From the NCBI GenBank assembly GCA_964355795.1, contig CAYHEQ010000004.1:1-42253 (forward strand): DNA of 42,253 nucleotides. The letters run 5' to 3'. The notes under the pieces are model-generated. The model saw only the letters and a list, made by a program, of their open reading frames with translations. It was not told where the DNA came from and searched no databases. The stretch is from an uncultured Candidatus Saccharibacteria bacterium. GTDB lineage: Bacteria; Patescibacteriota; JACPGU01. Below are positions 11,390 through 41,543 of this stretch, one piece after another (position 1 is the first letter of the stretch; every line of letters begins with the position of its first letter). Both the position numbers and the translations under genes were made by a program.

Positions 11390-11430
11390 GAGGTTTGACC
11401 TTGAGAATTGGCTGTTTAAGGTCAAACCTC
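11390..11430. repeat. 13-bp perfect-stem hairpin
   Basis: gaggtttgacctt-gagaattggctgttt-aaggtcaaacctc, between ruvA and rnj. Confidence 0.7.
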
Positions 11431-13488: not shown

Positions 13489-13689
13489 TTATGATTCTTC
13501 TAATATTATTTTCTTTTCAAAGCCTCCTTTTTTATTCAATTTTTCTTCCTTAATTTTTTCTATTGCTGATTTTTCAAATCCTTTAGCGACACAAATAGCG
13601 TCAATAACTTCTAGTATATCTGCGATTTCTTCAGCAGATTCATCTCGTAGAAGCTCATTTGTGTGGTAGTCGGAACCTAGTTCCGACAC
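13489..13689 (-). CDS. MazG-like NTP pyrophosphohydrolase fragment, possibly 5'-truncated
   Basis: ESAEEIADILEVIDAICVAKGF...KKGGFEKKIILEE resembles the C-terminal half of ~100-aa MazG-type proteins. The first EExxE helix is missing. The hairpin repeat at 13704-13729 lies immediately upstream. Confidence 0.4.
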   Translation of the reverse strand: MSELGSDYHTNELLRDESAEEIADILEVIDAICVAKGFEKSAIEKIKEEKLNKKGGFEKKIILEES

Positions 13690-13703
13690 TCTTAATTCTT
13701 TTC

Positions 13704-13729
13704 TGTCGGATGTAGCATCCGACTAGCAC
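13704..13729 (+). repeat. TGTCGGATGTAGCATCCGACTAGCAC hairpin element, copy 1
   Basis: Exact 26-nt copy of 39200-39225. The stem is gtcggatg/catccgac. Confidence 0.85.
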
Positions 13730-18702: not shown

Positions 18703-18890
18703 CTTTTTGAGTAAAAACAGGAGCGAAAATGCCCCCATCACTTCTTTTTTGTTTTCACCCTGTACTCTTCCTTGTATATCCCTCTCAATTCTTTTTGGAT
18801 ATCTTGCGTATTCGCATGCGAACGGCTGGCTGGGTTCGGTTTCTCCTCAAAAAGAACAAGAAGCCCCAAATAGGACCTCTTGATTCCAAG

Positions 18891-19015
18891 AAACTTCGGA
18901 ACGAGCTCGCCAATTAGGATTAGCATTGTGAGGGTTGATTCTATTGACGTTCAACTTGTCATTGATGCCATTCCAGTTCACAATCACGACATTGCCATCG
19001 GCATCGCGCGAGCTA
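18891..19015 (-). repeat. DGR-type template repeat (TR)
   Basis: 125 bp matching 19360-19484. All 15 differences have A on the minus strand here. The implied translation is Asn-rich (NWNGINDKLNVNRINPHNANPNW). Confidence 0.85.
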
Positions 19016-19295
19016 AATTTTGTCTGACTCCCTCCGCATGCCACCGGCTTTCTTTTGCAAGATTCCTGTGTTCTCCCTTCGTCTCAAAGGGCTATGTTTC
19101 CGACCAATATCTTTGAGGAATATATGTCGCGCAGAATCAGACAAGCAGTTTCTCTAAAATGTGGCAAACCGCTATCCCCCACCACTCGCACTTTCTAAAA
19201 GCCAATCACATCATCAGAACAAGAATCGTTTTCTAAAATACACGAGTGGCGGGGGACCGATTGTATTAGCCAAAGATTATTTTAGCAAAACAAAA

Positions 19296-19357: not shown

Positions 19358-20188
19358 TTAAACTGCGGAACGAGCCCGCCAATCAGGATAAGCATTGCGA
19401 GGGCTGAAACTATTGACGCGCAACCTGTCATCGATGCCACCCCAGTGCACAATCACGACATTGCCATCGGCATCGCGCGAGCTAGTAATTGTGACGGTCT
19501 TGAGGTCGAGATGTTGGCCGGTATTCCAGTGATACCAGAGCTCGAGAAGAAGGCGTTCCTCAAGAGTAATAATGTCCATGCCTTCTCCTCGACAGGCATC
19601 AGCGGATTTGTTTTTGTTCTCCTCGTCCGCTTCTTGACCACCACGGAACCATTTGAAGTAGGTTTGGCTGGTGTTGCGCGGAGCCTCAACTATTTGTGTG
19701 TTGAGATCATCGTAGAGCTTCCACGCCTTGCTACTAAAGCGATTCTTGCACTTGCCAAAAAGTTCTTCGCGAGTAAGCCCCTCCAAAACAGCCATTAGCC
19801 ACTGAGAGTCCTTGGGCTTTTCGTGGATGAAAGCACTGGAAAGATCCACTTCTTTTTTGAAGACATCGGAATAAAAACGCTGAAGTCCCTCGATCTGCGC
19901 GCTATAATCTCCGATGGATTCAGAGGTAATCTTGCCAGAGGAGAATGCCTCAAAAAGTTTTATGGCAGTGGCTGGGGAGATGCCTACGGGAAGCTTCACC
20001 CAGATTGCTTTTGCAACATCCTTTGTTTGTCGCAAAAGTTCCGATATCTTCTTCGCCAGTAGGGTCTTCTTCCCAATCCAATACTGCGCGTCTAGAGCCA
20101 ACAAGTCGGTAGGGATCGATTGTACGACAGCGCTTATCAGCTCCCTAAGCTGTTTGGCGCTAAGGACAGTTCTATCATCTTTCTTCAT
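19358..20188 (-). CDS. DGR target protein (hypothetical, C-terminal variable region)
   Basis: 276 aa, with AAAGGAGGA 7 nt upstream of the ATG. The last 41 codons coincide with the VR. No recognisable family otherwise. Confidence 0.8.
   Translation of the reverse strand: MKKDDRTVLSAKQLRELISAVVQSIPTDLLALDAQYWIGKKTLLAKKISELLRQTKDVAKAIWVKLPVGISPATAIKLFEAFSSGKITSESIGDYSAQIEGLQRFYSDVFKKEVDLSSAFIHEKPKDSQWLMAVLEGLTREELFGKCKNRFSSKAWKLYDDLNTQIVEAPRNTSQTYFKWFRGGQEADEENKNKSADACRGEGMDIITLEERLLLELWYHWNTGQHLDLKTVTITSSRDADGNVVIVHWGGIDDRLRVNSFSPRNAYPDWRARSAV
19360..19484 (-). repeat. DGR-type variable repeat (VR)
   Basis: Partner of 18891-19015 at an offset of 469. Carries G/C/A (plus strand) at the 15 positions where the TR has T. 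Confidence 0.85.
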
Positions 20189-20384: not shown

Positions 20385-20451
20385 GAGCGTGATGAAAAAC
20401 TTTTCCAAAACAAGAGAGCTTATGACTTTCGCATTTAACCTTCTCCGCAAA

Positions 20452-20489
20452 GATGTCCGACATCAAAGGATGCCCAGATGTCGGACATC
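20452..20489. repeat. 13-bp hairpin with loop AAAGGATGCCCA, copy 1
   Basis: gatgtccgacatc-aaaggatgccca-gatgtcggacatc, in the leader of the SpoIID gene. Confidence 0.85.
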
Positions 20490-20541
20490 AAAATACGCAC
20501 CGACCAATAGAAGCCACCTGTTGTCATACGGCAGACTAACG

Positions 20542-22305
20542 ATGAGAACAAAAGCGAAAGTCCTGATGGTGTTAATTTTTGTGACTCTGATGTCTCTGCT
20601 TTTGAATACGCCAAGTATTTCCCTAGCGGAAAACAAAACCAAGGATGAACTCCTGCAGGAACTAGAAAATATCAAGAATAGCCAAGACGATTTCATGGGA
20701 GCTGTTACCAACTATCAGGGCAAAAGTAAAAATGCTCTCACCAGTCTGGCTGAAACTCGGGAGCAAGTATTGAAAAACAAAGCCGAGATAGAAAATCTGG
20801 CAGAAAGTATCGAGCAAGCCGAGGAAGAATTGGCCAAAAATAAAAAGGCGCGGATGAGCTTGCTACGCAATTTCTATATCGCTACGACTGGCAAATGGCC
20901 TTTTTTGGAGCTTTTGCAGGCCGAAAGTTTCGGCGACCTCATTCGCCGACAGATCTATATGAAAAACGCTCAAGAAAAAATGGTGGCCGAGATCAAGAAA
21001 TCGGTGGCGGAAGCGCGCTTGCTGGAAGAGGGGAAGCAAGTGGCGACCGTCAAAAGAGAAATAATGCTCTCGCAAATAGACATTTTACATAATCAATTGG
21101 CGTCTTTCAAAAAATCCATCCGAGAAAATGAGGCGAAAATCCGCGATTTGGAAAAAAATAAAAAAGAAGTGGAACAGCAAATCTTGGCGCTAGATCCGCC
21201 GAAAGTCCCACTCAATACCGACGGCAATTCGGCTCTGATTTTGCGATTAAACGAAGTGGATTTCGCCAAACAAAATTATTTAACTATTGAAGGCGCCGGC
21301 ACGCCCCACGGCATAGGAATGAGTCAGTACGGCGCCAAAGCGATGGCCGAGGCCGGCAATGATTTCGAGAAAATCCTGACCCATTATTATCAAGGAACGA
21401 AAATCGGCCAGATCAATACTGATGCTATCAAAATGCGCGTGAAACTCTCCGCTTCCGCTTCTGGTGGCGCTATTATTGTCTCTGGCGGAAAGGCTTTGGG
21501 ACATGAAGGTATCATAGAATCTGGGAGCGCGATCTCCGCTCGTTCGGGGTTACATCTAGAAGCTATTGATGTCTCCACTCGCTTCATCGTTACTTACAAA
21601 TTTAATAAATTTAATTCCTTCCGCGGAGCGATAGATATCGTGGGCTCGGCCGGCAATTTCACGACCGTTAATACCTTGCCGATAGAAGATTATCTGCGCG
21701 GAGTAATCTCCGGGGAGATGTCGTCTTCCTGGCCCAAGGAGGCTCTGAAAGCGCAAGCGGTGGCGGCCAGAAATTACGCGTATAAAAATCTGAAGCCCAA
21801 TGCCTCTTACGACATCTGCGACACGCCGACCTGCCAAGTCTATCACGGCGCTTCTTACGAATTCGTCTCAACAGACCTAGCCATTCGAGAAACCGCGGGA
21901 AAAATGCTCTACTACGGGAGCGAGATTATCACTGCCTACTATTTTTCCACTTCCGGAGGTTGGACGGAAAATAACGAAAATGTTTGGGGCGGCGCGCCTC
22001 GCCCCTACTTGCGCGGCGTGGCTTCTCCCGGAGAAAATTCGCCGTACAATCATTGGACGGTGAAGACTCTGGACAAGACTACGGTGGAGAGATATTTGAA
22101 CGCTGATTCGGATACCGCTATCGGCGATTTACAAAAAATCGAGATCATCAAAAGAGGCGTTTCGGGGCTGGTGATGGCAGTGAAAATCACCGGATCAGCC
22201 GGGGTGAAATTGGTTACCGGCCAAAATTTCAAATATGTTATCAATATCAATCTACCCGACAATGAACCCAGCTACATCAAAAGCGGGCTTTTTGGTGTAC
22301 GCTAA
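20542..22305 (+). CDS. SpoIID/LytB-domain protein with signal anchor and coiled coil
   Basis: The start is moved to ATG 20542 (MRTKAKVLMVLIFVTLMSLLL). Coiled-coil N-terminal half. SpoIID motifs YLRGVISGEM...ALKAQAVAARNYA...CDTPTCQVYHG...YYFSTSGGWTENNENVW. Confidence 0.85.
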   Translation: MRTKAKVLMVLIFVTLMSLLLNTPSISLAENKTKDELLQELENIKNSQDDFMGAVTNYQGKSKNALTSLAETREQVLKNKAEIENLAESIEQAEEELAKNKKARMSLLRNFYIATTGKWPFLELLQAESFGDLIRRQIYMKNAQEKMVAEIKKSVAEARLLEEGKQVATVKREIMLSQIDILHNQLASFKKSIRENEAKIRDLEKNKKEVEQQILALDPPKVPLNTDGNSALILRLNEVDFAKQNYLTIEGAGTPHGIGMSQYGAKAMAEAGNDFEKILTHYYQGTKIGQINTDAIKMRVKLSASASGGAIIVSGGKALGHEGIIESGSAISARSGLHLEAIDVSTRFIVTYKFNKFNSFRGAIDIVGSAGNFTTVNTLPIEDYLRGVISGEMSSSWPKEALKAQAVAARNYAYKNLKPNASYDICDTPTCQVYHGASYEFVSTDLAIRETAGKMLYYGSEIITAYYFSTSGGWTENNENVWGGAPRPYLRGVASPGENSPYNHWTVKTLDKTTVERYLNADSDTAIGDLQKIEIIKRGVSGLVMAVKITGSAGVKLVTGQNFKYVININLPDNEPSYIKSGLFGVR

Positions 22306-22436
22306 TTTCGCTAATTAACTCAAATTACTTGAATAAACAAAATTGTAACTTTCATTTGATTTTTTGCTTAATTTTTGATAGTATTTGTATTCAATAGCCA
22401 ATCCGAATGTTCGGAATGTTTTATCTTTGGCGATTT

Positions 22437-22633
22437 GCGCCCATAGCTCAGTTGGTTAGAGCGCCACTCTTACCCGCCCGCCTGGACTTCGTTTGTGCGC
22501 CTATAGCTCAGTTGGTTAGAGCGCCACTCTTATAAGGTGGATGTCGCTGGTTCAAGTCCAGCTAGGCGCATTCGTCAAGGCGAAGTCGGGCGCGGTAAGG
22601 TGGAAGTCCCTGGTTTCAGCCCCAAGCTGACCT
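22437..22633 (+). pseudogene. disrupted outer tRNA-Ile-like copy split in its anticodon by a 123-nt insert
   Basis: 22437-22472 matches the first 36 nt of the intact tRNA with 1 mismatch. 22596-22633 is a degenerate copy of its 3' half that cannot form a T arm or acceptor stem. Confidence 0.6.
22497..22570 (+). tRNA. tRNA-Ile (anticodon TAT)
   Basis: Manual cloverleaf: acceptor gcgccta/taggcgc, D arm gctc-agttggtta-gagc, anticodon arm ccact-cTTATAa-ggtgg, T arm gctgg-ttcaagt-ccagc. No encoded CCA. Confidence 0.85.
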
Positions 22634-22641
22634 ACCGTAGC

Positions 22642-22730
22642 GCAATCTATTTGGCGAAGAGGAATAATCACCCCCGTCTGCAATGCTTTGCATAGCAATG
22701 CGGGCAGGTATTTCGCCAAGAGATTAAGCG
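22642..22730 (+). repeat. 89-nt structured repeat, copy A
   Basis: Shares a 58-nt core (1 difference) with 23418-23506. The closing helix is ttggcgaa/ttcgccaa. Confidence 0.7.
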
Positions 22731-22797
22731 CAGGGCAGGCAAGTCCATCCACGCGCATTTCGTAAGTGGTAAGCCAAGCCTTTTGTAAAATAAAAAT

Positions 22798-23202
22798 ATG
22801 ATAAAAGATATTATCAGACTTTTTGAAAAACAGAGTAAATTCTCAAAGACCATGATGGCCTTGATTGTCGTGGGAACATTGATGCTGTATTCATCTCTGA
22901 ATATTGTTTATAGGAATTACCAAATCAATAGACAAATAAAGGGTCTGGAGCAAGAAATCGCTTATTTACAAGAAAATAACATTGAACAAAGGAACAGAAT
23001 CCTGTATTATAGTACGGACGCCTTCGCTGAAAAGATTTTGCGACAAAAACTCAATCATCAGAAGGAGGGCGAGAGGGTCTACGCCTTGGCGCGCAAAGAT
23101 CCTGAAAGAGAGAAGTTAGTCAGAGAGCAACAGAAGTATCAAGAAAGGGAGGAGAAAAAAGCGAATATTTTGAAATGGTGGGATTTCTTCTTTAAGCACT
23201 AA
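22798..23202 (+). CDS. FtsB/DivIC-like septum formation initiator
   Basis: Single TM helix (MMALIVVGTLMLYSSL), a coiled coil (QINRQIKGLEQEIAYLQENNIEQRNRI), then DAFAEKILRQKLNHQKEGERVY. Confidence 0.6.
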   Translation: MIKDIIRLFEKQSKFSKTMMALIVVGTLMLYSSLNIVYRNYQINRQIKGLEQEIAYLQENNIEQRNRILYYSTDAFAEKILRQKLNHQKEGERVYALARKDPEREKLVREQQKYQEREEKKANILKWWDFFFKH

Positions 23203-23290
23203 TTGCGCGAATATTTGACTAATTGCGCGAATGAATGATCTCCGAAATGATTAGTGAAATTCGTTAAAAATTCGCGTAATTAGTGTATGT

Positions 23291-23362
23291 CGCGGGGTAG
23301 AGCAGTGGTAGCTCGCAAGGCTCATAACCTTGAGGTCGTGGGTTCAATTCCCACCCCCGCAA
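23291..23362 (+). tRNA. tRNA-Met (CAT), initiator-like
   Basis: Acceptor cgcgggg/ccccgca gives the C1:A72 mismatch typical of bacterial initiator tRNA. Anticodon arm caagg-ctCATaa-ccttg, T arm gtggg-ttcaatt-cccac. Confidence 0.85.
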
Positions 23363-23417
23363 TTTGAAATGTGTTACAGCAAGGATATAGATAGAAAAAC
23401 ATCTCACCCTCCGAAGA

Positions 23418-23506
23418 GCAATCTATGCCGAGAAGAGGAATAATCACCCCCGCCTGCAATGCTTTGCATAGCAATGCGGGCAGGTATTTCGAGGCGAGAT
23501 TAAGCG
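23418..23506 (+). repeat. 89-nt structured repeat, copy B
   Basis: Same core as copy A. The closing helix is gccgagaa/ttcgaggc, with three compensatory pair changes relative to A. Confidence 0.7.
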
Positions 23507-23535
23507 AAGGAGGGGTGTGGTTTTAGAAATAATTA

Positions 23536-23609
23536 GCCAGGGTAGCTCAGTTGGTTAGAGCGTAGGACTCATAAGCCTAAGGTCGAGAGTTCAATCCTCT
23601 CCCCTGGCA
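23536..23609 (+). tRNA. tRNA-Met (CAT), elongator; lysidine-type Ile2 not excluded
   Basis: Acceptor gccaggg/ccctggc, D arm gctc-agttggtta-gagc, anticodon loop ctCATaa, T arm gagag-ttcaatc-ctctc. Confidence 0.85.
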
Positions 23610-23612
23610 TTT

Positions 23613-23903
23613 ATGTTCTATGTATATATACTGCGAAGCACCAAATGCCAAAATTACTATATTGGCGTAAGTAATGATGTAAAAAGAAGATTAAAAGAGC
23701 ATAATAGTGGAATGTCGAAATCTACTAGTCCTTTCCGACCGTTTCTGCTCAAAAGGGTGGAGAGATACTTAACCATCAATGAGGCATACCGAAGGGAAAG
23801 ATTTTTGAAGTCAAAAAAAAGTAAAAAGATTATAGACCTAGTAGTAAAGAGTAGTCCCGACGTTCTTGCGGAGCAAGAAGTCGGGATCCCGATTTTGCGG
23901 TAG
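23613..23903 (+). CDS. GIY-YIG nuclease family protein
   Basis: FYVYILRS...NYYIGVSNDVKRRLKEHN...ERFLK has the GIY/YIG, R, H and E positions. The ATG starts 3 nt after the tRNA 3' end. Confidence 0.85.
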   Translation: MFYVYILRSTKCQNYYIGVSNDVKRRLKEHNSGMSKSTSPFRPFLLKRVERYLTINEAYRRERFLKSKKSKKIIDLVVKSSPDVLAEQEVGIPILR

Positions 23904-23905
23904 CA

Positions 23906-23979
23906 AACATCGGGACTCAGTTGGTTAGAGCACAGCACTCATAACGCTGAGGTCGTGGGTTCGATCCCCGCCCCTGGTA
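23906..23979 (+). pseudogene. tRNA-Met(CAT)-like copy with a damaged 5' acceptor/D region
   Basis: From the D loop onward it is a good tRNA (agttggtta-gagc, ctCATaa, gtggg-ttcgatc-cccgc, 3' acceptor ccctggt). The 5' 12 nt (aacatcgggactc) pair with it at only 4 of 7 acceptor positions. Confidence 0.45.
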
Positions 23980-23988
23980 TTTAGCATT

Positions 23989-24024
23989 CAAAAGCCCCTT
24001 CTTTCATGAGAGACGGGGCTTTTG
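23989..24024. terminator. bidirectional intrinsic terminator
   Basis: caaaagcccc-16 nt-ggggcttttg between the tRNA cluster (+) and doc (-). Confidence 0.6.
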
Positions 24025-24039
24025 CATTATTGAAAAAAT

Positions 24040-24402
24040 TTAAGCGCAATTTTTAGCCAGCCATTCGGAGAGGTCTTTGACGGAGGCGGTAAAAAGATTA
24101 TTTTTGAAAAAATCAAAAGTGGCGGGACTGGAAGCGTCAAATTCTTTTTTATTAATCTTAAGAAAGACAGCCATAGCAGTCAAGGCTGTCGGCAGATTAC
24201 CGGACGCGAAAGGCTTCTTTTTCGCGATAGCGAAAATCAGCGCGCCAGCTTTGTCAAAAAGCGTGGGGAAAACTTCGTTGTTTTTGATGTAGCTGACTGT
24301 TCTTTTCAAAATCTTGGTGTCGCCAATGCCGTCGCGACCTCCTATTTCGGAGGTTACGCGACTATGGATGTATAGTATTTCGGAAGGAGATAAATAATTC
24401 AT
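24040..24402 (-). CDS. Fic/Doc-family toxin-like protein with a degenerate active-site motif
   Basis: Size (120 aa) and pattern (ILYIHSRV...GGRDGI...GALIFAIAKKKPFASGNLPTALTAMAVFL) fit Doc. KPFASGNLPT replaces the HxFx(D/N)(A/G)NKR motif. Confidence 0.65.
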   Translation of the reverse strand: MNYLSPSEILYIHSRVTSEIGGRDGIGDTKILKRTVSYIKNNEVFPTLFDKAGALIFAIAKKKPFASGNLPTALTAMAVFLKINKKEFDASSPATFDFFKNNLFTASVKDLSEWLAKNCA

Positions 24403-24506
24403 TCTGACAATTTTTCTAGGTCTTTCTTGTATTTCTTGATGAATTCTTCAATATGCCGAGCCTTTTCGTCTTCCAGTTGGAAATTGACGAGTGGTTCAAT
24501 ACGAAT
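24399..24506 (-). pseudogene. 3' fragment of an AbrB/MazE-type antitoxin gene, still stop/start coupled to doc
   Basis: Encodes ...EPLVNFQLEDEKARHIEEFIKKYKKDLEKLSE*, a diverged copy of the C-terminal ~35 codons of 24665..24898. Its TGA overlaps the doc ATG (ATGA). Confidence 0.7.
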
Positions 24507-24551
24507 GGCTGGATGATGGTTTGACTTGCAGGAAACCCTTCTTCCTGATCC

Positions 24552-24589
24552 AAGGTTCGACCTTAAAGGATGCCCAAAGGTCGAACCTT
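24552..24589. repeat. 13-bp hairpin with loop AAAGGATGCCCA, copy 2
   Basis: aaggttcgacctt-aaaggatgccca-aaggtcgaacctt. The loop is identical to 20465-20476 and the stem is unrelated. Confidence 0.85.
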
Positions 24590-24664: not shown

Positions 24665-24898
24665 CTACTCTGATAGTTTTTCCAAATCTTTCTTGTATTT
24701 CTTAATAAATTCTTCAATGTGCTGGGCTTTTTCATCTTCCAGCTGGAAATTGACCAGTGGTTCAATAATAATGCGACGATTCTTGCCGTCCACATTGACG
24801 AAAACTTTGTCGCCAATTGCTATCGCCAAATTACCCAAAACTTTTTTGGGGATAGTTACCGCCGCCGAAGAGCCGATTTTGATGATTTTGTTGGCCAC
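24665..24898 (-). CDS. AbrB/MazE/SpoVT-family antitoxin
   Basis: IIKIGSSAAVTIPKKVLGNLAIAIGDKVFVNVDG looped-hinge-helix pattern, 77 aa. Confidence 0.75.
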   Translation of the reverse strand: MANKIIKIGSSAAVTIPKKVLGNLAIAIGDKVFVNVDGKNRRIIIEPLVNFQLEDEKAQHIEEFIKKYKKDLEKLSE

Positions 24899-26880: not shown

Positions 26881-29193
26881 TTAAGATTGCGCTCTCGGAT
26901 TTCTACTACTAGGCCATTCCTCTACCATCAAAAATTCTTTTTTGCCAGCAAGGGGCAAGATCTGGTAGATTTCTTCGGTGATGAAAGGGATCATCGGGTG
27001 CAGGAGAATGAGAGAATTTTTCAAAATGAAAAGGAGGTTGTCTTTAGTTTCTTTTTCAATTCTTAATTGCTCTGCGTTTTTATTATTTGGATTTTGAGTA
27101 TTGGGTATTGTTTGTGATTTGTGATTTGTGATTTGTGATTTTGTTTCCTCTATATACTTATCGCAAAATTCGTGCCAGAAAAAATGATAGATCTCTTCTG
27201 CCGCTTGACCGAAACGGAATTTTCCCAGATTGTCATGGTAGGATTTTTTTAATTCTGCAAATTTTAATTTAATCTCTCGATCAGCCTCGGTATTTTCGGT
27301 AAAATCAAGCTCGCCTCGCTGTTCATAGCCATCCAGCTTCATCAAAACAAAGCGCGTGGCGTTCCAGATCTTGTTCATAAAGGTCTTGGCCATTTGCAAA
27401 ACATCCTCGGAAAATTTGATATCCGGTGTGCCGGTGGTTTGGTAAATCAAGCCAAATCGTGTCGCGTCAGCGCCATATTTCTCCACCATAAGCAGAGGGT
27501 CGATGCCAGTGCCGAGCGACTTGCTCATCCTTTTCCCTTCTTTGTTAAAGACGGTTGGGTTGATATAGATAGTGTGAAAAGGCGCTTCGCCCATAAATTC
27601 AATCCCTGAAAAAAGCATGCGCACCTCCCAGAGATTGATAATCCCGCGGTCGGTGACATTGATGGAATTCGGATAGTATTTTTCCAAATCTGTTTTCTTG
27701 TTTTCTTGACTTCTTGACTTCTTGACTTCTTGACCATCGGGCCAACCGAGAGTCGCAAATGGCCACAGCGCCGATGAAAACCAAGTATCCAGAACATCTT
27801 CCGATTGAACCATATCGCAATCACTGCAGAAAGGGCATTTTTCTGGCCTATTGGCTGAAACAATGCATTGGTTTTGAATTTTAGATTTTGGATTTAAGGT
27901 TTGTTTGGGATTTGAGATTTGGGATTTGAGATTTTCTGCCGTTTGGTTTTTACAAAACCAAACAGGCAGTTGGTGTCCCCACCAGATCTGACGGCTGATA
28001 CACCAATCGCGGATATTTTCCAGCCAATGCATCGCTGTCCCCTCGTATTGTTCGGGGATGATTTTCACCTTACCTGATTTTAACGCTTCAATCGCGGGCT
28101 TGATTAATTCCGCCATTTTCACGAACCATTGCTTTGACGGGATTGGTTCGATAACGGTGTGGCAACGGTAACATTGCGCGCTATTGTGAATATAGTTGTC
28201 GTCAATGCGATCAATCAGCCCCATTTTTTCCATATCAGCCACGATGACTTTTCGCGCCTCCAGTGTCGTCAAACCTGCATATTTGCCACAATTGGCCATC
28301 ATCTTGCCATCTTCGTCTATTATTTGCTTTAATGGCAAATGATGGCGAAGCGAGATATCGTAATCCACAGAGTCATGGGCGGGAGTGACCTTGATAGCTC
28401 CCGAACCAAAGGCGGGATCTACCATCTCGTCAGCGACCACGGTGATCTCAAATTCGCCCAAGACCCCGGGAATCATATATTTCTTACCCACCATCTCGCG
28501 GTATCTTTCGTCAGACGGATGAACCGCCACCGCGGTATCGCCGAGTTTCGTCTCCGGACGAGTGGTTGCTAAAACAAAGGGGCCATATTTGATCCAATAC
28601 AATTTCGTTTTTTCTTCCTCGTGTTCTATCTCCAAATCAGACAAAGAGGTCTTGCATCTCGGACACCAATTGACCACTCTCTCGCCTTGATAAATATAGC
28701 CCTTGTCCCAATAGTGCTTGAAGGCGACGAGAACTGCGCGAGAATAACCTTCATCCATCGTGAAACGAGTGCGAGACCAGTCGCAGGAGACACCAAGTTT
28801 TTTCAGCTGTCCCAAAATAGTTGCCTCGTATTGATCCTTCCATTCCCAAACTTTTTCGACGAATTTTTCCCGCCCCAAATCAAAGCGATTCACCCCTTCT
28901 TTTTGTAATTTTTGTTCTACTTTGTACTGCGTGGCAATCCCCGCGTGATCGGTGCCGGGGATCCAAAGCGTTGGTCGTCCCTCCATTCTTTTTTGTCGAA
29001 TCAAAACGTCTTGCAAGGTATTGTTGAGCGTGTGCCCCATATGCAATTCGCCCGTCACATTGGGTGGGGGGATGGCAATGACAAAAGGTTCTCCTTTGGC
29101 TTTTTCGGAGGGCGAGAAATATCCCGACTTTTCCCAAAGCGGGTAGATTTTCCCTTCCACTTCGGCTGGATTGTAGGTTTTGGAGAGTTCCAT
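26881..29193 (-). CDS. valS: valine--tRNA ligase (with in-frame low-complexity insertions)
   Basis: PPPNVTGELHMGH (HIGH), RMSKSLGTG (KMSKS), editing-domain block TTRPETKLGDTAVAVHP, and EDVLDTWFSS. Confidence 0.95.
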   Translation of the reverse strand: MELSKTYNPAEVEGKIYPLWEKSGYFSPSEKAKGEPFVIAIPPPNVTGELHMGHTLNNTLQDVLIRQKRMEGRPTLWIPGTDHAGIATQYKVEQKLQKEGVNRFDLGREKFVEKVWEWKDQYEATILGQLKKLGVSCDWSRTRFTMDEGYSRAVLVAFKHYWDKGYIYQGERVVNWCPRCKTSLSDLEIEHEEEKTKLYWIKYGPFVLATTRPETKLGDTAVAVHPSDERYREMVGKKYMIPGVLGEFEITVVADEMVDPAFGSGAIKVTPAHDSVDYDISLRHHLPLKQIIDEDGKMMANCGKYAGLTTLEARKVIVADMEKMGLIDRIDDNYIHNSAQCYRCHTVIEPIPSKQWFVKMAELIKPAIEALKSGKVKIIPEQYEGTAMHWLENIRDWCISRQIWWGHQLPVWFCKNQTAENLKSQISNPKQTLNPKSKIQNQCIVSANRPEKCPFCSDCDMVQSEDVLDTWFSSALWPFATLGWPDGQEVKKSRSQENKKTDLEKYYPNSINVTDRGIINLWEVRMLFSGIEFMGEAPFHTIYINPTVFNKEGKRMSKSLGTGIDPLLMVEKYGADATRFGLIYQTTGTPDIKFSEDVLQMAKTFMNKIWNATRFVLMKLDGYEQRGELDFTENTEADREIKLKFAELKKSYHDNLGKFRFGQAAEEIYHFFWHEFCDKYIEETKSQITNHKSQTIPNTQNPNNKNAEQLRIEKETKDNLLFILKNSLILLHPMIPFITEEIYQILPLAGKKEFLMVEEWPSSRNPRAQS
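27113..27140. repeat. 7-nt x4 tandem repeat inside valS
   Basis: tgtgatt x4, part of the in-frame segment ...QITNHKSQTIPNTQNPNNKN.... Confidence 0.85.
27705..27735. repeat. 8-nt x~4 tandem repeat inside valS
   Basis: cttgactt x3 plus cttgacc, encoding ...GQEVKKSRSQE.... Confidence 0.85.
27870..27934. repeat. T/G-rich stuttered repeat inside valS
   Basis: ggttttgaattttagattttggatttaaggtttgtttgggatttgagatttgggatttgagatttt encodes ...ENLKSQISNPKQTLNPKSKIQNQ... between the WFCKNQ and CPFCSDC blocks. Confidence 0.8.
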
Positions 29194-32308: not shown

Positions 32309-33604
32309 TCACAGGTTTTTGCTCGACGCGACCTCAAAATTCATTTTGCTTAATTGCTTAATTGGTTTTTTGGTTAATTGGAACAAAGCGCAGGTCGCGA
32401 CCATTGTCGCGTTGTCGCCACAGTATTTGAGAGGGGGTAGAACGAGATTTGGATGTCCGACATCGAACCCGCTAGATGACGGACATCTCAGCTCACCTAG
32501 AGTAATCGCCATTTTTTCGCGCAAACGTTTGTTGGCGGCGACGCCTCCGGCGATAGAGATGGTCTTGGCTTTGTATTTTTGCGCGGCGCGGATAGTTTTC
32601 GCCACCAAAACATCAGTGGCGGCTTCTTCAAATTCGTAGGCGAACGATCCTTTTCGCGCTTCAGCCGAGGTCGCACCTCCGTCCGCTACGCTCTCCGAGG
32701 AACGACCCCCACTTTCGCGTTGCCAAGCATACAAAACGGCAGTTTTGAGACCGGAAAAGGAAAAATTGAGGTCCTTGCTGTCTAGCATAGGACGAGGGAA
32801 GGTTAGGCCAGTGTTGAGTGTTGAGTGTTGAGTGTTGAGTTTAGGATTTTGAATTTGAGATTTGTTTGTGTTTTGTGAAGTTTGTGTTTTGTGAAGTTTT
32901 TTTCGGTATTCATCCGCATATCGCGAGACGCTCGGTCCTCCGGGGTATCCCAACCCCAAAATCCTCGCCACTTTATCAAAGGCCTCCCCCGCCGCGTCAT
33001 CCAAGGTCTCGCCCAGCGTCTGATATTGACCATGGTCTTTCATTAAAATAAGCGAGGTATGCCCACCAGAGACCAGCAATATGATTGCTGGAAATTCGAA
33101 GGGGGTTGCGTTTAGGTTGAAATTTTGGATTTGTAATTTGTTTGTGTTTTGTGTTTTGTAATTTGTGTTTTCGCGAATTTTATCGGAGATAAAATTCGCG
33201 TAGATGTGTCCCTCCAAATGATTCACCGGTATCAAGGGCTTCCCCCACGCCAGCGCCAATGATTTGGCGGTATTAACGCCTACCAGAAGCGAGCCAATCA
33301 GCCCTGGATAGGCGGTAACGGCGATAGCGTCTATCTGTCGAGGTGTCACCTCGGCATCTTTGAACGCCTTATCAATGACAGAGATGATCTGCTCCACATG
33401 AGCGCGAGAAGCCACTTCTGGCACCACCCCGCCGGTTAAAGCGTGGATATCCACTTGAGAGGCAATAACAGATGACAAAACGTGTGCTCCTTTTTGAAGT
33501 CGCACTTCGTCTGGTGCCGAAGAACGACTTCTTTGAGGAGCGCGCAACTCCACCACCGAAGCGGCCGTCTCATCACAACTTGTTTCAATGCCTAGAATAA
33601 TCAT
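32309..33604 (-). CDS. tsaD: tRNA N6-adenosine threonylcarbamoyltransferase TsaD (insertion-rich)
   Basis: MIILGIETSCDETAASVV, NHLEGHIYANF, VSGGHTSL, GGVAANKRLRE. At 431 aa it is clearly longer than the family norm because of several inserts. Confidence 0.9.
   Translation of the reverse strand: MIILGIETSCDETAASVVELRAPQRSRSSAPDEVRLQKGAHVLSSVIASQVDIHALTGGVVPEVASRAHVEQIISVIDKAFKDAEVTPRQIDAIAVTAYPGLIGSLLVGVNTAKSLALAWGKPLIPVNHLEGHIYANFISDKIRENTNYKTQNTNKLQIQNFNLNATPFEFPAIILLVSGGHTSLILMKDHGQYQTLGETLDDAAGEAFDKVARILGLGYPGGPSVSRYADEYRKKLHKTQTSQNTNKSQIQNPKLNTQHSTLNTGLTFPRPMLDSKDLNFSFSGLKTAVLYAWQRESGGRSSESVADGGATSAEARKGSFAYEFEEAATDVLVAKTIRAAQKYKAKTISIAGGVAANKRLREKMAITLGELRCPSSSGFDVGHPNLVLPPLKYCGDNATMVATCALFQLTKKPIKQLSKMNFEVASSKNL
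32810..32898. repeat. tandem repeats inside tsaD
   Basis: gtgttga x4 (32810-32837) and ttgtgttttgtgaagt x2 (32865-32896), encoding ...KKLHKTQTSQNTNKSQIQNPKLNTQHSTLNT.... Confidence 0.85.
33108..33172. repeat. T/G-rich stuttered repeat inside tsaD
   Basis: gcgtttaggttgaaattttggatttgtaatttgtttgtgttttgtgttttgtaatttgtgtttt encodes ...RENTNYKTQNTNKLQIQNFNLNA.... Confidence 0.8.
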
Positions 33605-39141: not shown

Positions 39142-39279
39142 ATAGATTATGGCATTAGTTGCTATAATCTATTATACTAGATTGTGAAGAATATCAAAAT
39201 GTCGGATGTAGCATCCGACTAGCACAAAAACACTCAACACATAATCTTTATGCGAGATATCTTCACATAAAGACGAGTT
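39142..39279 (+). repeat. conserved left block, copy 1 (bidirectional promoter-like region plus hairpins)
   Basis: 39142-39203 aligns to 41353-41414 and 39244-39279 aligns to 41470-41505. Contains tgctataat (+), TTGATA-15-TATAAT on the minus strand facing polA, and the hairpin ctttatgcgag...cacataaag. Confidence 0.8.
39200..39225 (+). repeat. TGTCGGATGTAGCATCCGACTAGCAC hairpin element, copy 2
   Basis: Identical to 13704-13729. It occupies the slot where the 41.4-kb copy of the block has a different hairpin. Confidence 0.85.
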
Positions 39280-40508: not shown

Positions 40509-40551
40509 TGCTAGTCGGATGCCTGCCTGCGCAGGCAGGCTACATCTGACA
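40509..40551 (-). repeat. TGTCGGATG..CATCCGACTAGCA element, copy 3, with an 18-nt palindrome inserted in the loop
   Basis: tgctagtcggatg[cctgcctgcgcaggcagg]ctacatctgaca is the rc of the 39200 element, with 1 mismatch plus a perfect palindromic insert. Confidence 0.8.
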
Positions 40552-40658
40552 GGCAAAGGATGTCTCTTGACGCGTATATGCATTGCATATACAATGTATA
40601 TATATGACAAAATCCAAATGCCAAAGCTCAAATGTCAAATAATACTAATTCCAAGACT

Positions 40659-41354: not shown

Positions 41355-41505
41355 AGATTATAGCTTTACTGGCTAGAATCTATTATACTAGATTGTGGGT
41401 AATATCAAAATGTCAGGACAGAGTCCCTGCTCGCATGGGATGACGATTACCTATAATACCCGACATACCATCTTTATGCGAAATATCTTCGCATAAAGAC
41501 GAGTT
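41353..41505 (+). repeat. conserved left block, copy 2
   Basis: Aligns to 39142-39279, with a different central hairpin and the perfect hairpin ctttatgcgaa-atatc-ttcgcataaag (41472-41498). Confidence 0.8.
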
Positions 41506-41543
41506 ATCGGATATATTGCTCTTTTAAAACGAATACTTTTGGG
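41503..41543. repeat. cassette-2 left inverted repeat
   Basis: The rc of gttatcggatatattgctcttttaaaacgaatacttttggg matches 41919-41936, 41967-41976 and 41980-41989. Confidence 0.8.

Follow-up and report, generated by a model that had tools for sequence, protein, structure and literature searches.

Rickettsia palindromic elements (RPEs) are 100-150 bp long and restricted to Rickettsia; like the GC clusters of yeast mitochondria, they are palindromic selfish repeats that sit in-frame in essential protein-coding genes and are tolerated there as extra surface peptides. The Correia, ERIC and BOX elements are bacterial miniature inverted-repeat transposable elements (MITEs), and in non-coding chloroplast DNA minute hairpin-loop inversions occur between short perfect inverted repeats as single-locus events. 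Repetitive extragenic palindromic (REP) sequences, with the bacterial interspersed mosaic elements (BIMEs) and REPINs, form hairpins as REP doublets and are mobilized by REP-associated tyrosine (RAYT) Y1 transposases (PMC3116915, PMC3337134). Here we describe two hairpins, E1 and E2, in a stretch of 42,253 nucleotides from an uncultured Candidatus Saccharibacteria bacterium (contig CAYHEQ010000004.1 of assembly GCA_964355795.1; this whole stretch is called the window below). We consider it probable that both belong to a REP/REPIN-like and RPE-like repeat family of miniature nested DNA palindromes, which is dispersed in genomes of the Candidate Phyla Radiation (CPR)/Patescibacteria.

E1 reads GATGTCCGACATC-AAAGGATGCCCA-GATGTCGGACATC (arm-loop-arm) and E2 reads AAGGTTCGACCTT-AAAGGATGCCCA-AAGGTCGAACCTT. 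A preliminary description had given the coordinates and sequences of both hairpins, which proved exact, including the identity of the loop, and had regarded the hairpins as non-random, which they are. By arithmetic, about 0.01 perfect 13-bp stems (loop 6-20 nt) are expected per 42 kb; hairpins with at most one mismatch number 10 in the real window versus 0-2 in ten first-order Markov shuffles; the folding energies as single-stranded DNA are -13.2 kcal/mol for E1 and -12.8 kcal/mol for E2 (z about -6); and the 12-nt loop has only two exact occurrences in the whole window. We therefore rejected a chance origin on the basis of the shuffle counts, the fold z-score and the loop occurrence. The stems, which had been taken for unrelated, share 8 of 13 arm positions (NANGTNCGACNTN), and all five differing positions are compensated in the opposite arm. 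Furthermore, each arm is itself a near-palindrome of the 6-1-6 or 5-3-5 type, GATGTC-C-GACATC in E1 and AAGGT-TCG-ACCTT in E2 (P about 0.005 per random arm), with the centre bases C/G in E1 and TCG/CGA in E2. Since the arms are palindromic and their differences are compensated, four half-sites change together. With 5-6 of 6 internal pairs per arm and 13 of 13 pairs between the arms, the hairpins are built, as in REP/REPIN sequences, of short imperfect palindromes paired in inverted orientation. They lack the combination of GC-rich stem, 3-8-nt loop and adjoining T-tract of an intrinsic terminator, the loop being 12 nt long with no proper T-tract beside it. The terminator scan called neither E1 nor E2, only an alternative 8-pair fold within E1 on the minus strand. 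In the search of the window against Rfam 15, only tRNAs passed, and the best matches near E1 had E ≥ 0.7.

Both hairpins are dispersed. In groundwater metagenomes, the depth rises from ~6.6 in the flanks of E1 to ~351 over exactly 20452-20489 (ratio ~53), and foreign contigs diverge from the E1 locus exactly at 20451/2 and 20489-91. The depth at E2 rises from ~8 to ~110; E2 is 100% identical in three Hainich contigs, and window DNA is 100% identical in Hainich groundwater assemblies. Two public assemblies (L047 and L048) end at or inside E1, at window positions ~20449 and ~20474; independent assemblies thus end at E1, showing that the repeat fragments CPR metagenome assemblies. A Candidatus Microgenomates metagenome-assembled genome, JACPGU01, contains 41 nt identical to the E1 hairpin in an otherwise unrelated locus, and this was the one true copy found when 185,579 species genomes were scanned for the loop (pattern ACNTN-AAAGGATGCCCA-NANGT). 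The same scan of the Joint Genome Institute metagenomes yielded at least 10 true copies with the same loop on a third stem, GAGGTTCAACCTC/GAGGTTGAACCTC. Compared with the E1 stem, this one is changed at positions 3/11 and 6/8, and here too the change extends to all four half-sites. The remaining matches had no stem and are chance matches, and every match outside the CPR was stemless. Loop variants were found as well (AAGATGCCCC, AAAAGAAGTCCA and AAAGGATGCTC). Contigs with E2-like flanks and a flipped loop were present in the same samples, and on one metagenome contig an E1-type hairpin lies 10 nt upstream of an E2-type hairpin. A sequencing adaptor or artefact is unlikely, as the sequences are confined to the CPR in several independent projects, namely Rifle, Northern California and Hainich groundwater and co-assemblies from the SRA, and lie inside intact open reading frames (ORFs).

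E1 is embedded in a larger MITE-like element, referred to here as type A. At least nine metagenome copies of it, with a 13-bp terminal inverted repeat (AGGACTTACGCAC/GTGCGTAAGTCCT), are ~95% identical to each other, whereas their flanks are wholly unrelated; they have varied neighbour genes and lie in either orientation. Type A copies occur in three genomes or populations, at different loci. JACPGU01 has a full copy upstream of recR (L029, E=1.5e-27) and a half copy downstream of mnmA. The window copy is diverged, and its terminal inverted repeat, GACTTTCGC (20434-20442) and GCGAAAGTC (20554-20562), has undergone compensatory changes. The copy extends to 20566, the start codon of spoIID in public gene calls; E1, which the preliminary description had placed in the SpoIID gene leader, ends 77 nt upstream of this start. 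Like MITEs, type A is small, noncoding and multicopy and has terminal inverted repeats. With the homologous type A flanks as reference, the window and JACPGU01 have the loop in one orientation and the metagenome copies in the opposite one. On one contig (L017, 485-636 and 1158-1310), two inverted ~150-nt copies flank a gene for a Fur-family regulator, one of them with the loop variant AAGATGCCCC; on another (L015, 1529-1945), the 5' end of a truncated reverse-transcriptase ORF (RVT_1, YADD motif) abuts a ~150-nt element copy.

The stem has a much wider distribution than the loop. The pattern GATGTCCGACATC-N8-17-GATGTCGGACATC has 26 specified bases, so that practically no match is expected by chance, and it was found at 13 loci, all of them in Patescibacteria (Saccharibacteria, Staskawicz- and Nealsonbacteria, Microgenomates and unclassified members) and each with a different loop. 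Over all pairs, the E1 stem was found at 14 loci with 15 different and unrelated loops, in Saccharibacteria, Microgenomates and genomes of the Parcubacteria type, and these loci are often within housekeeping genes. At the orthologous loci L026 and L031, the flanks are ~90% identical and the stem is the same, but the loops are unrelated. Some loops consist of inverted flank copies (L027, L025). Eight of the 13 loci are within long ORFs, encoding ThrRS, RecG, an Mfd/RecG-like helicase, CysRS, RsmA and membrane proteins resembling glycosyltransferases or O-antigen ligases. The coding copies are on both strands and in all three phases, and no peptide is therefore conserved. Together with three further copies within tsaD (E3, E6 and E7, see below), these loci depart from the extragenic location of REP/REPIN sequences. 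When the centre base was left free, the stem-motif pairs of CPR genomes, designated GATGTCSGACATC pairs, comprised 13 C..G pairs, one G..C pair and one direct pair, and the only matches outside the CPR were actinobacterial tandem repeats. The inverted arrangement was kept in 14 of 15 CPR pairs. Two independent symmetric sites would give ~25/25/50% instead of 13/1/1, and the pair is therefore a genuine inverted repeat in which one polarity predominates. The same counts, and the fact that the arms are exact inverted and not direct repeats, led us to reject the duplication of a palindromic target site as the origin of the arms. Scans of viral contigs gave no stem matches, and a phage origin was rejected on this ground.

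Copies within genes have been gained in some lineages. The tsaD gene (32309-33604, minus strand) encodes a protein of 431 aa, compared to ~330 aa in solved TsaD structures, and E3, E6 and E7 coincide with three insertions in this protein. E3 is a 36-nt, 12-codon in-frame insertion encoding RCPSSSGFDVGH, which is absent from the solved structures. E3 and E7 are missing in all 11 aligned TsaD relatives, including the closest ones (69-74% identity), and are thus lineage-specific, whereas E6 is also present in the nearest relatives. In JACPGU01, the closest relative found (TsaD 69-74% identical, same gene order), the E6 ortholog has kept its stem by a compensatory change of G:C to T:A, and its loop differs (11 nt versus 17 nt). 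Sequence similar to E6 was found in 2-3 other contexts per metagenome sample. A second case is an O-antigen-ligase-like gene. Here the copy from Saccharibacteria is an insertion of 36 nt located in the middle of a 7-1-7 palindrome, the ortholog L037 is empty at this site with only a small native hairpin there, and other orthologs have different hairpins at the same codon. In one of these (L038), the hairpin arms are palindromic as well (GGAAAC-CGA-GTTTCC). E3 and the insertion in the ligase-like gene are thus in-frame palindromes absent from orthologs, as are RPEs. For the CysRS copy (L034), we do not claim a clean insertion, because the region aligns to a variable segment. TsaD also has two low-complexity insertions, KTQNTNKLQIQNFNLN and KTQTSQNTNKSQIQNPKLNT, whose motif recurs in ValRS (LKSQISNPKQTLNPKSKIQNQ; valS 26881-29193); these may represent a second kind of repeat-derived coding insertion.

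To summarize, the repeat unit is the hairpin itself, 36-42 bp long, consisting of inverted 13-bp palindromic motifs (consensus RANGTYSRACNTY, main type GATGTC-C-GACATC) around an 8-17-nt spacer. It is multicopy and sharply bounded, and its contexts are unrelated to each other, both inside one genome and from genome to genome. It has been gained in some lineages, in essential genes and in-frame among other places, and is absent at the orthologous sites elsewhere. It can be nested in larger composites, namely type A around E1 and a tail (type B) beside E2. The different stems and spacers are assorted as modules, and a spacer can be found inverted. The loop AAAGGATGCCCA is a marker of one sub-lineage in groundwater Microgenomates-like genomes and not a recognition element. 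Because the unit is scattered through CPR genomes, probably in high copy number and even in-frame in essential genes, we regard E1 and E2 as selfish or structural repeat DNA and not as a loop-recognised regulatory signal. Among the three readings offered in the preliminary description, that of a small mobile element or its active end came closest, inasmuch as E1 and E2 represent a unit that is dispersed in multiple copies, sharply delimited, flanked by unrelated sequences and present in some relatives but absent from others. According to that description, a lack of further copies and of conservation would have refuted it; this is clearly not the case, as many further copies were found.

Within 42 kb, the window contains six family members, E1, E2, E3, E4, E6 and E7 (Table 1). 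The stem of E4 is two substitutions away from that of E2, and both are compensated. The word aaaggatg, which had been noted to recur at 40555-40562, is indeed present there, but an 8-mer is expected ~1.3 times by chance. Since it adjoins a GC hairpin, GCCTGCCTGCGCAGGCAGGC, and a GC hairpin similar to this one directly precedes a true family copy on another contig (L023, 577-614), the site may be a decayed half-copy of the family. Other short repeats are located at 13663-13729, 39196-39225, 39242-39276 and 41456-41514. The 26-mer TGTCGGATGTAGCATCCGACTAGCAC is present twice and at 13669-13723 is paired with a second 8-3-8 palindrome 17 nt away, and a hairpin ATCTTTATGCGA...TCGCATAAAGA is also present twice in the window.

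Table 1 Hairpin units, composite elements and associated features in the window
Feature	Positions	Strand	Description
E1	20452-20489	.	38-nt hairpin repeat unit; arms 20452-20464 and 20477-20489, loop 20465-20476
E2	24552-24589	.	38-nt hairpin repeat unit, stem variant AAGGTTCGACCTT; loop 24565-24576 as in E1
E3	32452-32487	.	13-nt arm of E1 (1 mismatch in second arm), 10-nt loop GAACCCGCTA; inside tsaD
E4	11390-11430	.	perfect 13-bp hairpin, unrelated 15-nt loop; intergenic between RNase J and ruvA
E6	32667-32709	.	older decayed hairpin of the same kind, 10/13 pairs; inside tsaD
E7	33496-33531	.	related 36-nt hairpin GAAGTCGCACTTC-GTCTGGTGCC-GAAGAACGACTTC, 11/13 pairs; inside tsaD
Possible decayed half-copy	40519-40566	+	GC hairpin GCCTGCCTGCGCAGGCAGGC, then ..TCTGACAGGC-AAAGGATG...; weak candidate
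Type A element	20419-20566	-	~150 nt, MITE-like, contains E1; nhmmer profile of metagenome copies, E=3e-37
Type B tail	24505-24551	-	~47 nt, attached to E2; GGATCAGG...TCATCCAGCC on minus strand; ends where antitoxin homology resumes
Truncated antitoxin copy	24403 to ~24507	-	5'-truncated second copy of MazE-type (MazE/AbrB) antitoxin C-terminus, 35 codons; directly upstream of doc

E2 lies between genes of a toxin-antitoxin locus, with the doc toxin gene at 24040-24402 and a full MazE-type antitoxin gene further upstream at 24665-24898. The preliminary description had interpreted this arrangement as an insert that split the Doc antitoxin. The antitoxin was not split: E2 is situated between the full MazE-type gene and the 5'-truncated second copy. 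The breakpoint at this locus coincides with the end of the type B tail of E2. This tail resembles the tail beside a hairpin in L019 (score 8, compared to a mean of -9.6 and a maximum of 2 for shuffles; 0 of 500 shuffles reached it), and the metagenome depth over it shows a graded rise from 12 to 40. According to the Pfam scans, the window is an ordinary housekeeping region, and no transposase, recombinase or Nop-domain gene was detected among the 30 ORFs scanned. E1 is adjoined by an ORF of 276 aa (region 18847-19044 and 19358-20188) with no Pfam match, whose C-terminal domain (SSRDADGNVVIV.W.GI.D.L.VN...) has a decayed paralogous copy just downstream. A tRNA-Ile with the anticodon TAT, uncommon in bacteria, is encoded at 22496-22571, and a weak extra tRNA-like Rfam match (33.8 bits), not called by ARAGORN, follows the GIY-YIG gene (23912-23975).

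If E1 and E2 belong to a mobile repeat family, the unit would spread as DNA folded into a hairpin, which would probably be single-stranded while replication proceeds, and its copies would enter new sites that are often existing hairpin tips or AT-rich palindromes. A trans-acting dimeric enzyme is favoured because the stem is two-fold symmetric, the polarity is fixed and palindromic sites are preferred. The copier could thus be a structure-specific enzyme that reads this symmetry; candidates would be a dimeric transposase of the HUH/Y1 'RAYT-like' kind, or a nuclease acting on hairpins combined with repair. Copies that lose either symmetry would cease to spread, which would explain the four-way concerted differences of the surviving variants, and the fast turnover of spacers may be due to the fragility of hairpin tips. 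Several observations weigh against such a family. A search for HUH motifs and the Pfam analysis of 30 ORFs revealed no transposase or HUH/Y1 enzyme in the 42-kb window that could mobilize the unit, and the sole candidate remnant nearby is a decayed IS200-like fragment, which lies at a distance of 1.5 kb from one of the metagenome copies. No consistent direct repeat that would represent a target-site duplication was present in the flanks of eight type A copies, nor was a fixed target site seen for the copies compared. The CPR genomes of the GTDB set have only 2-3 perfect copies each, and the 50-fold depth may therefore sum over several organisms. Moreover, REP-type repeats normally differ from genus to genus, so that the identity of a 13-mer across CPR classes is unusual for them, and simple copy-and-paste descent does not readily account for a loop that is shared by three stems with concerted differences. 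Finally, the hairpins may have an additional role at the RNA level. The IS200-like fragment is an N-terminally truncated gene for a Y1 transposase that lies beside an IS5-like DDE transposase (L021, 3605-5089; ~1.5 kb from the element copy) and has an in-frame GC palindrome of its own, GGGGCACGGCATGCCGTGCCCC.

The hairpins could instead have been generated locally, if fragile hairpins were broken, repaired by fold-back priming or template switching and so rewritten in place without any transposition. This would fit the orthologous sites with different hairpins, or with the same stem and unrelated loops, the loops built from inverted flank copies (L027, L025), the hairpins at the centre of pre-existing palindromes and the four-way concerted stem changes. 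However, local rewriting cannot place one and the same 38-41-nt unit at loci and in genomes that are unrelated, cannot put an identical 12-nt loop on three stems and cannot cause a sharp-edged 50-fold spike in depth, and we consider it unlikely as the origin of the family, although local fold-back repair may drive the turnover of loops. We regard as rather improbable the explanation that the arms are paired sites for a conserved dimeric DNA-binding protein, i.e. an operator, a nucleoid or segregation site, or a motif similar to DNA uptake signals that occurs in inverted pairs. The arms are palindromic, as a dimer site would be, and conservation across the CPR classes extends to the 13-mer but not to the spacers; the uptake signal sequences of Neisseria and Haemophilus likewise occur as inverted pairs and within genes. 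Nevertheless, 14 of 15 CPR pairs are complementary at the centre base, a position irrelevant to a symmetric site, and 13 of the 14 have one polarity, the spacing varies between 8 and 17 nt, several different 13-mers fill the same roles, many copies are insertions in coding sequences, and there are few perfect copies per genome.

The two other readings in the preliminary description, a protein-binding hairpin and a kissing hairpin recognised by the loop, were its main idea and amount to a cis-acting structured RNA (leader, attenuator, stabilizer or terminator). The hairpins are stable, one is upstream of spoIID and the other between toxin-antitoxin genes, and the loop is identical on three stem backgrounds. 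On the other hand, the loop is inverted relative to homologous flanks, so that the RNA would present the complementary loop; the orientation to neighbour genes is inconsistent; the same stem has unrelated loops; copies are in ORFs of both strands and all three phases; and the hairpins have no Rfam match and, with a 12-nt loop and no proper T-tract, are not called by the terminator scan. These points largely refute a structured RNA, which we consider very unlikely. Hardly credible, in our opinion, is a relation to the guide-RNA systems called TIGR, which are known from the CPR (PMC12045711). These systems are tandem arrays of 36-nt units with conserved loop repeats beside a Tas (Nop-domain) gene, in which spacer A and spacer B do not pair with each other but with neighbouring segments on the two opposite strands of the target (PMC12045711). 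The hairpins are similar in their unit of 36-38 nt, the conserved ~12-nt loop ending in CCA and the variable flanking 13-mers, and two units lie 10 nt apart on one metagenome contig. Yet the units in the window are isolated, with no Tas (Nop-domain) gene among the 30 ORFs scanned, their arms pair perfectly, unlike TIGR spacers, the loop does not begin with UG, and copies are inside housekeeping genes.

A dispersed repeat family thus remains the reading that we favour. A more far-reaching version of it is tentative: a self-propagating 'nested palindrome' common to the whole CPR, in which a 13-bp module, always as an inverted pair, would colonize hairpin tips, including those in essential genes, where 12-14 extra residues would be translated from it. 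Its stems would be rewritten four-way and its spacers swapped or flipped, which would imply that Patescibacteria have in common either an undescribed dimeric enzyme specific for hairpins or a copy-choice mechanism. In the searchable literature, neither these sequences in any relevant setting nor the phenomenon itself were found to be described, and no paper connected in-frame insertions of palindromes with Patescibacteria. The genomes of CPR/Patescibacteria are tiny and streamlined, and unusual length is a feature of many of their conserved proteins. If the nested-palindrome reading is true, it could reveal one source of the many protein insertions typical of the CPR, and the repeat in-frame in tsaD, recG, thrS and rsmA would be a concrete source of such extra segments. 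The repeat would also mark an as yet unrecognised DNA-hairpin-processing activity in the CPR. From a practical point of view, metagenome assemblies break exactly at the repeat, and there is a risk of taking it for a unit of guide RNA or a regulatory RNA.

Compared to known systems, the family is most similar to REP/BIME/REPIN sequences in its architecture. The short unit is an imperfect palindrome, two inverted units together make up a larger hairpin, conservation is lower in the spacer than in the units, the copies are multiple and dispersed, and subfamilies differ by compensated changes; as in BIMEs, unit types and linkers are combined as a mosaic. In contrast to REP/REPIN sequences, the unit is only 13 bp long, copies are also within coding genes, neither a RAYT nearby nor a conserved 5' tetranucleotide was observed, and the same unit is common to distant CPR classes and not species-specific. 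With RPEs and GC clusters, the family shares in-frame palindromic insertions and presence or absence between relatives, but it differs from RPEs in taxon and size, the CPR units being 36-42 bp long with a nested palindrome architecture, and GC clusters are mitochondrial. Type A resembles the Correia, ERIC and BOX elements in its 13-bp terminal inverted repeats, its multiple copies, modular structure, varied neighbour genes and either orientation, whereas no target-site duplication or known parent insertion sequence was detected for it and it carries the mini-hairpin as an exchangeable internal module. The loop orientation flips between close relatives, as in the chloroplast inversions, which are however events at a single locus, while here they concern a dispersed repeat family. 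Overall, the features fit a REP-doublet architecture combined with the in-frame behaviour of RPEs and, for E1, with nesting in a MITE-like element.

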